From: Nitrospirota bacterium
GTDB lineage: Bacteria; Nitrospirota; UBA9217
NCBI GenBank assembly: GCA_963796285.1
Contig: CAWCKW010000012.1
Coordinates: forward strand, 1,280,001 to 1,344,000
DNA length: 64,000 nucleotides
Reading direction: 5' to 3'
The notes under the pieces were generated by a model. It worked only from the letters and a program-made list of their open reading frames with translations. It was not told the origin of the DNA and made no database searches. The position numbers were made by a program, and so were the translations under genes. Of the stretch, positions 2,438 through 5,266 are shown one piece after another (the first letter of the stretch is position 1; each line of letters opens with the position of its first letter).

Positions 2438-3409
2438 CTATAGCTTCTGCTTTCTTCCCGTCATTACAATCGTGTCTCCAAGAGTGGTCTTTTTGATGCG
2501 CTTGAATCCCGTCTTTGTAAGCCAAGCCTTCATTTCCTGCATCGTATAGCACCTTCCTGCCGTAGTATTGACAAGCATGTTTACAGAAAAAAGAGCGCCG
2601 GGGACGGGGTGGGCGCGATCCTTTCCCAGGAAGAATTCCTGGATCGCGATCTTGCCTCCGGGGTTCATCGCGTCATACGATTTTTTCAGGAGCGCCGTAC
2701 TTTCATCAATCGAAAGTGAGTGTACGATCTGACTAATGAATACCAGGTCGTATCCGCTGCCGATATCATCGGAGTGGAAATCGCCGGCGATGCATTCTAC
2801 ATTCTTTACCTTTGATTCTCTCACGATCTTCCTCGCAACTCCCATGGTATTCGGCTGATCGAAGAGGGTAACGGAAATTCCGTGACGCGCCATCTCTATG
2901 CTGTACGTCCCCGGCCCGCCGCCGAGGTCGAGGGCCTTTTTTATACCACGGATGCCAACAACCTGTATCACATCCTTTGCGTGAAAGACCGCATTGTTAT
3001 GCATGGCCCTGATGAAAGATTCATGGTGACGCTCGCGCGTTCGGCTCGGCAGGCCGGTTTTCATGACCTCGTCGAGAGCCGACCAGCTTTTCCAGAGAGT
3101 GTCCGAGTGGCGAAGCATGTCTCCCTGATACCAATATGACTTTTTTACGAGAAATTTTGTTGCAAGAGACGAGTTCCTGTATTTCGAACCTCTTTTCTTG
3201 AGCAGGTCCAGGGCTGTCACGGCATCGAGAAGGATTTCCGTCGCGCGCGGATCGGTCTTGATCCTTTTGGCCAGAACGCCGGCTGTCTTCGGCGTCTTGA
3301 GGTGTTCAAACACGGCATAGTTGTTCGCGGTGAGGATCACACGCGAGGCTCGAAAGCCCCCGGAGAGTTGTCTGAATACGTGGAGCTGTTGAAGAAGATC
3401 GTTGTTCAT
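2438..3409 (-). CDS. SAM-dependent O-methyltransferase with dimerisation domain
   Basis: LDLGGGPG motif, GDF, SLNML-like C-terminal motif; ATG at 3409 (MNND) preceded by AAGGA. Confidence 0.9.
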   Translation of the reverse strand: MNNDLLQQLHVFRQLSGGFRASRVILTANNYAVFEHLKTPKTAGVLAKRIKTDPRATEILLDAVTALDLLKKRGSKYRNSSLATKFLVKKSYWYQGDMLRHSDTLWKSWSALDEVMKTGLPSRTRERHHESFIRAMHNNAVFHAKDVIQVVGIRGIKKALDLGGGPGTYSIEMARHGISVTLFDQPNTMGVARKIVRESKVKNVECIAGDFHSDDIGSGYDLVFISQIVHSLSIDESTALLKKSYDAMNPGGKIAIQEFFLGKDRAHPVPGALFSVNMLVNTTAGRCYTMQEMKAWLTKTGFKRIKKTTLGDTIVMTGRKQKL

Positions 3410-3562
3410 CGAGTAGTCCTTTCGCTGCGATGTGAAACTTTGGTGACGTTGTTTCTCACTATGCTTTTCTCCGCTCCGCTTCCGATCCACCCGCTCAAGC
3501 GCCATTCTCGGGGGAAAATTGGGAACATCTTATAATCCACGAAGTTGTTCTCAGATTACCGG

Positions 3563-4123
3563 TTATTTTCCTGAGCGTACCGGCCAGACGTAGTAGCTGA
3601 CGGCCTTTTTGCCCCAGTACGTGTGGCCGTCTGACAGGTTGACGTACCACGCGTCATCAGTCGAAGGGGCGTAGGTAGTAGCGGTCCAGTAGTGACCAGA
3701 CTGCACGCTACTAAACCCCTGACTATTGAGCCATGCTGCTATGTTTGATTGGCCTGCGTTCACCAGGCTTTCAAGCTCTCGAACATTGGGCACGCGCCAC
3801 TGCCCGGATGTGGATCCATCTGTCAATCCGCATTGACCGTTTGCAATGCTACCGACGTCTTTCAGCGCAGCAGTCCATGACACACCTAAGCAGTTCGCGT
3901 TTTTCAGCCATATTAGACCCGTAAGATTGTCTATAACTGTTCCGTTACTGTTGTCCGTGAACCTTGGGCTCGGCCAGGCAACACCTTTCTGAAGCGCTCC
4001 GTCGTCATTGCTCTCATAGCTTGAAGTCTGGCCGGTGCCGGGAAGCTGTACTGTACCTGCATAGGCGCACACCGGCAAGACCATGACTGTTAAAAGAATT
4101 ATCATAAACATAACTTTAGTCAT
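3563..4123 (-). CDS. Secreted DUF1566 (Lcl C-terminal, C-type-lectin-like) protein
   Basis: Signal peptide, TGQ motif, RFTDNxNGTVxDNLTGLIW, WRVPNVRELESL, YVWPVR at the C-terminus. Confidence 0.85.
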   Translation of the reverse strand: MTKVMFMIILLTVMVLPVCAYAGTVQLPGTGQTSSYESNDDGALQKGVAWPSPRFTDNSNGTVIDNLTGLIWLKNANCLGVSWTAALKDVGSIANGQCGLTDGSTSGQWRVPNVRELESLVNAGQSNIAAWLNSQGFSSVQSGHYWTATTYAPSTDDAWYVNLSDGHTYWGKKAVSYYVWPVRSGK

Positions 4124-4323
4124 ATCCTTTTCTCCTTTTTGTGTTTCTGTCTATTGCAATGGTGCACCTTTCAATTTCATTACTCAAAGCAGCAAAGCTT
4201 CTATAGGTTCACTTTTTATTTTTGTTGATATCAAATGATCAACTAACATGTTCGGATTGTAACGCAGACGAACCTGGCAAACCTTCAACCGCAAATTTCA
4301 GGAAGGATCAAACTCGGCATTCA

Positions 4324-4725
4324 TTAATGAACAGGCGCCTCCCGCATCAGCGGCAGACTGTTTTCAAGTATCGTTGCCTGCATTGTCAAAATCACCCTTG
4401 GCCTTTTCGGGTCGTTGCACACAACCTCGATCGTTTCCGTTATAAAACCCTTTTTCATCACGGTGGAAATCCTTCCTGTAATTCCCCCTTTTTCACCGGC
4501 TTTAAGATGGCTCGAACTAGCCACCACGGCTGCGCATCCTCAGGACGTATTGACCTCTTTTATGATGAGTTCATCGGACCCAGCATTAATGAATTCAAAG
4601 GTATATTCCAGTTGTGCTCCTCGAATTACTTTCCCGAAGTCATGTTTCTCGGCCGTAAATTCAAGGGCCGGCTGTGCCCAGGCAACTGCAGGAAACAATA
4701 ACAGGATGAGAATTATTTTCTTCAT
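4324..4725 (-). CDS. DUF1573-like exported protein with in-frame UGA (TS-U-GC); probable selenoprotein
   Basis: ORFs 4540..4758 and 4324..4527 are in the same frame and separated only by TGA at 4540-4542, which falls at the first Cys of the family SCGC motif; HDFG...F.F.N.G...L.I and CNDP motifs; hairpin just 3' of the UGA. Confidence 0.75.
4506..4525 (-). promoter_or_regulatory. Candidate bacterial SECIS hairpin
   Basis: Minus strand GGUGGCU-AGUUCG-AGCCAUC: 7-bp stem, G at loop position 2, loop 21 nt after the UGA. Confidence 0.6.
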
Positions 4726-4831
4726 AAATATATTATAGCATATTACGTTTTTATTCATTTAGAAAGACTACAAGATGGTAACAATTTGCTATAATTACGA
4801 TCAGGACGATGACTCAAAAGGAGGGGTTATC

Positions 4832-5266
4832 ATGAACAAAAAATTACTCATGGTGTTGGTTGCGGTCTTATTCACGATGTGCCCGGTCTATCACGTTGAG
4901 GCGGCGGATAAAACTCCGGAACAACTGGTAAAAGAAAGTAAAGCATTGATTAAAGAAGTATCGATCGATGATGTCAAAAAAATGATCGACACAAAGGAAA
5001 ATGTCATCATCCTCGATGTTACTGATAAGCACGAGTTTGAAGGAGGTCATCTCCCTGGAGCAATAAATATTTCACGAGGGATGTTAGAGTTTAAAGTGGC
5101 CCAGATCATACCTGACAAAAATTCAAAAATTGTTGTTTATTGCGGGCTGGATCTCCGAGGGCCGTTGGCCACCAAAACCTTAAACGATCTCGGTTATAAT
5201 AATGCAGTAAACATGGCTGGCGGTCTCAAAGCATGGAAAGCTGCGGGCTATCCCTTAGTCAAGTGA
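4832..5266 (+). CDS. Rhodanese-like domain protein with signal peptide
   Basis: ILDV...EFEGGHLPGAINI...VVYCGLDLR...GGLKAW; GGAGG RBS; extended -10 TGcTATAAT at 4787-4795. Confidence 0.9.
   Translation: MNKKLLMVLVAVLFTMCPVYHVEAADKTPEQLVKESKALIKEVSIDDVKKMIDTKENVIILDVTDKHEFEGGHLPGAINISRGMLEFKVAQIIPDKNSKIVVYCGLDLRGPLATKTLNDLGYNNAVNMAGGLKAWKAAGYPLVK

Follow-up and report, generated by a model that had tools for sequence, protein, structure and literature searches.

An in-frame UGA, very probably read as selenocysteine, in a DUF1573 gene of a Nitrospirota bacterium

Does a TGA in the middle of a conserved reading frame end the gene, or does it encode an amino acid? The question is raised by a locus in a stretch of 64,000 nucleotides (hereafter the window) from a Nitrospirota bacterium (GTDB lineage Bacteria; Nitrospirota; UBA9217), which covers positions 1,280,001 to 1,344,000 of the forward strand of contig CAWCKW010000012.1 in assembly GCA_963796285.1. 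The gene lies on the minus strand. When positions 4324-4758 are reverse-complemented and translated with TGA as selenocysteine (Sec, U), a single open frame is obtained (...IIKEVNTS-U-GCAAVVASSSHLK...), and the TGA in question appears on the plus strand as TCA at 4540-4542. Comparison of sequences makes it very likely that this is a real gene of the DUF1573 family in which the UGA is read as selenocysteine. Site-specific recoding is favored because the genome holds the machinery for selenocysteine, the TGA is conserved, a hairpin is tied to the UGA, and TGA is otherwise used as a normal stop codon.

The reading frame, the codon and the hairpin

The coding sequence runs from the ATG at 4723-4725 to the TAA at 4324-4326 (4324-4725, minus strand) and specifies 133 amino acids with Sec at residue 62. 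In a list of open reading frames (ORFs) made under translation table 11, the same frame is divided into 4540-4758 (72 amino acids, from an upstream ATG) and 4324-4527 (67 amino acids). The Pfam model PF07610 (DUF1573) runs across the TGA. Positions 1-97 of its 98 match residues 32-129 of the 144-residue form that begins at the upstream ATG, with a score of 71.4 bits (E 6.5e-20) that exceeds the gathering cut-off of 26.1 and places the protein in the family. A HYDIN/VesB immunoglobulin-like (Ig-like) model also matches the protein. The residues U62-G63-C64 (4534-4542, minus strand) are the selenocysteine counterpart of the DUF1573 CGC motif, and their columns are invariant in the alignment of relatives described below (A2).

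The start was placed at ATG 4725 and not at ATG 4758 for three reasons. An ATG lying 61-63 codons before the U is common to all nine members of the window's clade, one of these orthologues (L026) has a stop 4 codons upstream of the shared ATG, and the conserved "LCYN" upstream of it is a DNA box, TGCTATAAT, read as protein. The 144-residue form was rejected accordingly. Residues 1-17 (MKKIILILLLFPAVAWA, 4675-4725, minus strand), followed by Q, resemble by eye a Sec-type (secretory) signal peptide with predicted cleavage after AWA. The N-terminus is hydrophobic in every homologue, and the first ten residues are modeled by AlphaFold at low confidence (pLDDT 53).

A first-pass annotation of this DNA had proposed that two short ORFs join through the TGA at 4540-4542 into one DUF1573-like protein of 133 amino acids (...EVNTS-U-GCAAVV...), that this protein carries a signal peptide, and that standard gene callers split it in two. 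The read-through translation and the Pfam match bear out the joining and the family assignment. The signal peptide holds as far as a judgment by eye can carry it, and the strand, which that annotation had left unstated, is minus. The splitting can be seen in public data: close relatives in a collection of 5.8 billion proteins are represented by 37 half-length calls of 44-72 amino acids, and the single full-length call (81% identity) has W at the site, as expected of a gene call made with TGA as Trp.

How widely is the TGA conserved? A six-frame search of 64 genomes of the window's order gave a match in 58. By hand count, 69 of the 76 matches listed contain an in-frame TGA; of the remaining seven, five are pieces of broken copies and the other two are only distantly related DUF1573 proteins. 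Thirty-one loci were extracted, namely the window's own locus, its paralogue in the same genome and 29 further loci. Their protein identities lie between 27 and 81%, and all of them show [ST]-U-G-C at one shared column. These loci fall into two clades. Clade A, to which the window's gene belongs, comprises L019 and L021-L028 (52-81% identity for the seven that were aligned), and clade B, at 32-39% identity, includes the second copy in the same genome (G000:C1:124390-124707). Alignment A2 holds both clades and leaves out L028, which is frameshifted, and L037, which is nearly identical to the paralogue L020.

The paralogue itself (L020:1444-1836) shares 35% identity with the window protein and has the same UGC motif and the same hairpin. 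It is located downstream of a gene for an MshEN-domain protein and upstream of one for a class-V aminotransferase. Clade B, not clade A, is the one present in most genomes of the order. A pattern scan of named genomes returned one true orthologue, in a metagenome-assembled genome (MAG) labeled Nitrospirota, which at 77% identity is the nearest named relative. The same scan gave two Cys-type matches of 35% identity in Bacteroidota MAGs, and 11 of its 14 matches were to the signal peptide only.

In a phylum-wide sample of 301 genomes, 129 had a match, and about 38 of the 150 rows listed were without an internal stop (hand count). Twelve places were fetched. All eight fetched forms without a stop have Cys at the column (T-S-C-G-C-T-A-A), and the four further TGA forms have U. 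Taken with the loci of the order, all 35 UGA forms have U-G-C and all eight Cys forms have C-G-C at one and the same column, which is the alternation by which the family is recognized.

The RNA just downstream of the codon is conserved as a structure. The hairpin GGUGGCU/AGUUCG/AGCCAUC (4506-4525, minus strand), with a 7-bp stem (4519-4525 paired with 4506-4512) and the loop AGUUCG (4513-4518), begins 14 nt after the UGA and is the minimum-energy element in single-sequence folding. The relatives were aligned without gaps from the TGA onward, so that columns 18-24 pair with columns 31-37. Across the 31 loci, 98.6% of the 217 cells form standard pairs, and both sides have changed in five of the seven stem pairs (GC to AU 15 times, UA to CG 13 times and 7 times, GC to AU 6 times). 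The covariation score was reached by none of 500 shuffles, pairing falls to 19-47% when the 3' arm is slid by 1-3 columns, and RNAalifold recovers the same helix. The compensatory changes alter the protein: on one arm Ala gives way to Ile or Val, and on the other Ser is replaced by Asp or Asn. The pairing of the RNA is thus preserved at the protein's expense.

The hairpin also follows the codon from form to form. The energy of the fixed-position helix lies between -6.6 and -13.5 kcal/mol in all 35 UGA forms (mean -10.4), whereas it lies between +3.3 and +8.0 kcal/mol in all eight Cys forms (mean +5.6), where the helix is absent. The loop consensus is [A/G]-G-U-[U/C]-C-N. Its G and U, at columns 26 and 27, do not vary, and all 31 loci have G as the second loop base. 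The bacterial selenocysteine insertion sequence (SECIS), as defined for bSECISearch, has its apical loop 16-37 nt after the UGA and a G among the first two loop bases, and in the fdhF element of Escherichia coli a G-U in the apical loop is the determinant of SelB binding. The loop of the window begins 21 nt after the UGA, inside that range. From its sequence and conservation, the hairpin is taken to act as a bacterial SECIS and as a putative SelB site.

The genome is equipped to use such an element. Profile searches found selA (511 bits), selB (78.5 bits for the wing domain, which is matched once in the genome) and selD (350 bits, itself with an in-frame TGA), and tRNA-Sec (64 bits) is located on contig C12, within a few kb of selA and selB. 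Thus, the four components that the literature associates with hosts of DUF1573/OS_HP2 selenoproteins are all present. selD was seen two or three times (G000:C1:101902-102822, C8:19066-19986 and C9:16273-17201). Two copies score identically with one in-frame TGA each, and the third, on C9, is broken into three frames; the additional copies may reflect redundancy of the assembly, for which contamination is put at 5%, or a real duplication.

Several conditions under which the first-pass annotation would have been given up can be settled here: the machinery is found, the column holds Cys in some homologues and UGA in others, and the hairpin that was described with loop AGUUCG 14 nt downstream is present in every UGA form and in no Cys form.

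Other readings of the UGA

Some observations weigh against reading the codon as selenocysteine, or against filing the gene with known selenoproteins. As a single sequence, the 66 nt that follow the UGA fold no better than shuffles (z = -0.21); because the folding energy is unremarkable, the case rests on comparison with relatives. The loop letters AGUUC also specify a conserved Ser-Ser pair and are seen again in some Cys forms, so that conservation of the loop, confounded by coding, is in itself weak support. Some Cys forms keep these letters together with weak A/U stems, and these may be remnants of a lost SECIS, a hint of conversion from Sec to Cys. The best NCBIfam match of the protein is NF041425, "OS_HP2 family (seleno)protein" (positions 3-97 of 98), with a score of 65.1 bits that falls below the curated cut-off of 100, and the window protein and 11 relatives, drawn from both clades, all score 65-86 bits against this model. 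The protein was therefore filed under the wider DUF1573 selenoproteins and not under NF041425. Finally, the genome encodes tRNAs with anticodon UCA and an apparent U73 that could insert Cys at UGA.

Could the codon then be read, wholly or in part, as Cys? Under this reading, a selC*-like tRNA would decode the UGA, for instance when selenium is scarce, and the product would be a CGC form. Two tRNA-Sec-like genes with anticodon UCA were found with Rfam outside the window, at G000:C12:1201224-1201314 (53.3 bits; L003:1497-1591, minus strand) and C3:325140-325231 (44.2 bits; L004:1501-1592, plus strand). They are nearly identical and lie in a repeat of about 360 bp with common flanks, and their acceptor stems differ by a compensatory swap. 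Both end in ...GUC-U-CCA with an encoded CCA, which by eye gives an apparent U73, although the register of the acceptor stem is ambiguous. Tallying with this, selC* tRNA-Cys has been described, in the portions of the report available, from anaerobes that keep the full Sec machinery, Nitrospirae included, and experiments in E. coli showed that it places Cys at UGA codons (Mukai et al., 2017; PMC5389517). There are also Cys versions of the protein, and these are evidently functional.

Against this stands the covarying SECIS, which is kept in 35 of 35 UGA forms and would be expected only under selection for SelB-dependent decoding. Neither extra tRNA gene has a selB* or cysS* next to it; the neighbors encode an HflX-type GTPase, a zinc ribbon, PmbA/TldD and DUF4149, and the genome has one match to the SelB wing domain. 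Because the SECIS is conserved, Sec insertion is what selection appears to maintain, and decoding as Cys is considered improbable.

Could the TGA be a nonsense mutation, or an error of assembly or sequencing, in an ordinary Cys-type DUF1573 gene? Such a pseudogene or artifact would account for the frame being split under table 11, and the draft genome has 13 contigs, with contamination put at 5%. The orthologue L028 (G029:C27:13433-13827) does change frame, after ...GEKGV, through an assembly error or as a pseudogene; its TGA and hairpin are intact. Nevertheless, all 31 independent genomes have the same TGA, at 27-81% protein identity; the sequence to either side of it is under purifying selection, the hairpin is linked to it, and the paralogue in the same genome has the TGA and the hairpin too. 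The first-pass annotation had allowed that raw reads might give TGC or TGT. Contigs from three other public runs, belonging to three studies, cover 4540-4542 and agree there, with no other letter at the site among the differences listed. One of these (X1) has no differences over 4412-4562, another (X2) covers 4533-4793, and the third (X9) has four pieces; 25 further, less-supported differences stand outside that list, and one of the three runs may be the source sample. Among the 22 runs listed, none holds RNA. An error or a nonsense mutation is thus given almost no weight.

Equally slight is the chance of two separate small proteins (61-72 and 67 amino acids) or of TGA as Trp or Gly under an alternative code: these would suit the 37 half-length public calls and the one full-length call with W, respectively, yet the Pfam domain and the predicted beta-sandwich run across the TGA, translation of the second half would have to start from a GTG within a strand, all eight non-UGA forms have Cys at the homologous position and none has Trp or Gly, and TGA is the commonest stop of the window, closing 23 of its 41 ORFs of at least 250 amino acids (the neighboring rhodanese gene among them), so that codes 4 and 25 are not in use. 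A second, C-terminal Sec was considered in two orthologues, L022 (...PP-TGA-TGC-TGC) and L023 (...LP-TGA-TGC-TGA), and was rejected, as no common hairpin follows. These terminal TGAs are ordinary stops, and that of L023 is accompanied by a terminator-like stem.

Fold, neighborhood and possible role

What might a selenocysteine do in this protein? An AlphaFold model made with alignment A2 predicts a single all-beta domain of eight strands and no helix (mean pLDDT 87.2, above 94 in most of the core), in which U62-G63-C64 occupies the turn joining strand 53-60 to strand 65-69. Searched with Foldseek, the model matches Ig-like domains of the PapD/ASH/HYDIN type. The best match is 2qsv (E 2.9e-07, TM 0.70), an uncharacterized protein of Porphyromonas gingivalis whose aligned domain is without the CGC motif, and 2qsv is also the single match in a sequence search of solved structures (E 0.071). 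The fold predicted by the model is an Ig-like beta-sandwich and not thioredoxin-like.

Next to the gene, a plus-strand ORF (4832-5266) encodes an exported single-domain rhodanese of 144 amino acids (PF00581, E 1.6e-20), preceded by GGAGG at 4820-4824 and with the active-site loop C104-G-L-D-L-R, whose C104 is invariant in 9 of 9 sequences. The rhodanese gene is divergent from the selenoprotein gene, next to which it lies in all eight of the family's clade-A orthologues (L021-L028). The two genes are separated by a spacer of 106 bp in which two identical TGCTATAAT boxes point apart, and both boxes are conserved among the orthologues. The first (4732-4740, minus strand) ends 6 nt before the ATG of the selenoprotein gene, and a TATAAT-like hexamer is found at the matching distance in 9 of 9 orthologues, preceded by TGn in 8. 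The second (4787-4795, plus strand) lies upstream of the rhodanese gene, and its reverse complement corresponds to the conserved "..ATAGCAA.." block of the orthologues.

From their sequence and conservation, the boxes are probable extended -10 promoters. A consensus promoter scan of 4150-4900 listed neither of them, and the 4732-4740 box is without a -35 match; over the same range the scan gave no terminator and one plus-strand promoter-like site at chance level. No Shine-Dalgarno sequence is visible between the 4732-4740 box and the ATG. Because of this, and because the box ends 6 nt before the ATG, the selenoprotein mRNA is probably leaderless or near-leaderless. Farther downstream on the same strand are an exported protein with an Lcl C-terminal domain (DUF1566-type; 3563-4123, minus) and an O-methyltransferase (2438-3505, minus), neither of which was found within the 1.5-kb flanks of the orthologues.

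Relatives elsewhere in the phylum provide a second association. Seven of the eight fetched Cys forms and one Sec form carry, by eye, a C-terminal cytochrome c with two CxxCH motifs, and the Pfam domain Cytochrome_CBB3 was confirmed in one Cys form and in one Sec form. These fusions (L050-L057 and L061) belong to other families of the same phylum.

From these parts, a sequence of events can be proposed. The ribosome would reach the UGA at codon 62, and the 7-bp hairpin with its invariant loop G-U, 14 nt downstream, would serve as the SECIS. If the mechanism follows that of E. coli, the hairpin would recruit SelB with Sec-tRNA(Sec), and selenocysteine would be inserted where termination would otherwise occur. 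The product would shed its 17-residue signal peptide and fold as one Ig-like beta-sandwich that presents U-G-C on the turn between two strands. There, U-G-C might cycle between the selenol/thiol and the selenenyl-sulfide and act as a redox center or as a center of sulfur or selenium transfer in the cell envelope. The likely partner would be the exported rhodanese encoded next door.

How far can a function be assigned? CXC motifs can mimic disulfide isomerase, and in E. coli disulfide chemistry can be fed by PspE, a periplasmic rhodanese. An envelope role in redox chemistry or in the transfer of sulfur or selenium by the U-G-C pair is suggested because the gene is paired with a rhodanese gene and because relatives are fused to cytochrome c. 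Two points speak against it. The fold is not thioredoxin-like and its sole solved relative is without the motif, and a search of about 2.5 kb around the gene brought up no rhodanese in any of eight relatives from other families. The neighbors surveyed there (17 of the 32 ORFs listed) show no common theme and include MotA/ExbB, Smr, PCMT (two loci), an integrase, HlyD, SmpB, a PPIase, an SSF transporter and YceD. The role is thus held tentatively, as possible rather than probable. The first-pass annotation had spoken of a Sec-containing periplasmic redox or metal-binding protein; the Sec-containing, exported protein is supported, and the function stays at the level of a proposal.

A more detailed picture can be drawn, and it is doubtful as a whole. 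The UGC selenoprotein and the rhodanese would form an envelope module, expressed from back-to-back extended -10 promoters and, for the selenoprotein, from a leaderless mRNA. Sulfane sulfur or selenium would pass from a persulfide or perselenide on Cys104 to the U62-C64 pair, or one protein would reduce the other, and at low selenium the UGA would also be read as Cys by the selC*-like tRNAs. If this were true, one gene would give rise to a Sec enzyme or a Cys enzyme depending on the supply of selenium.

The recoding itself has consequences for annotation. As the clade scores below the NCBIfam cut-off, public collections hold half-genes or a W at the UGA, and the same misannotation probably affects the clade of the paralogue, which a majority of the order's 64 searched genomes contain. 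A lower cut-off for NF041425, or a new model, would recover the DUF1573 selenoproteins that are now missed. DUF1573 is widespread in anaerobes and Bacteroidota and has no known function. Envelope redox chemistry or chalcogen transfer would be a first testable hypothesis for it, since Sec and Cys alternate in a C-G-C motif on an Ig-like scaffold and since cytochrome c fusion and rhodanese pairing occur. The understanding of Sec decoding as such is left unchanged.

Comparison with known systems

How does the locus compare with systems already described? Like the SECIS of the E. coli fdhF type, the hairpin of the window is a stem-loop within the coding sequence directly after the UGA, with an invariant apical G-U and covariation in the stem. 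It differs in its short stem of 7 bp, in having no evident bulged U, and in a weak lower element of 2 bp that is predicted by RNAalifold only. Selenoproteins with a thioredoxin fold and a UxxC motif also have Sec near Cys, presumably forming a selenenyl-sulfide, in an exported redox context. The window protein departs from the UxxC/CxxU pattern of that fold, as its U-x-C motif has one spacer residue and its model is an all-beta Ig-like sandwich. The Cys-type DUF1573 proteins and 2qsv share the same Ig-like PapD/ASH/HYDIN beta-sandwich. The Cys-type forms also show the motif in a T-S-C-G-C-T-A-A context like that of the window protein. They are without the hairpin, and many of them end in a di-CxxCH cytochrome c domain, which the window protein does not have. 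The extra tRNAs of the genome may be of the kind of selC* tRNA-Cys opal suppressors, to judge from their tRNA-Sec scores, their UCA anticodon and a U73 read by eye in an ambiguous acceptor-stem register.

The closest known system is the OS_HP2 family. According to the parts of the reports available, OS_HP2 was one of six new selenoprotein families from the metagenome of the Olavius algarvensis symbionts, represented by two Sec sequences at a time when no Cys homologue had been recognized (Zhang and Gladyshev, 2007; PMC1976440). In the later GOS study it was equated with pfam07610, with UxC as its motif, and had two Sec members beside 354 Cys homologues (Zhang and Gladyshev, 2008; PMC2398784), and a DUF1573 UGC selenoprotein is covered by reviews of 2022 and 2026 (PMC9312934; PMC13188914), as far as their accessible text goes. 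The gene of the window is a member of this published OS_HP2, or "DUF1573 UGC," selenoprotein type. It shares with it PF07610, a U-x-C (UGC) aligned with the first Cys of CGC, a SECIS-like hairpin 3' of the UGA, and occurrence in anaerobes with large selenoproteomes. Function, neighborhood and structure are not described in the available portions of the OS_HP2 papers, and in the DUF1573 literature, some of it accessible by title only, nothing was found on rhodanese pairing, cytochrome fusion or fold. In comparison with the curated OS_HP2 set, the window's clade stands separate, with the signature NTSUGC[AG]AV.ASSSHLK...SNDPKRP and a paired rhodanese gene. Thus, the family itself is known, and what is new here is a clade missed by the curated model, together with the probably leaderless start, the rhodanese pairing, the cytochrome c fusion and the predicted Ig-like fold.

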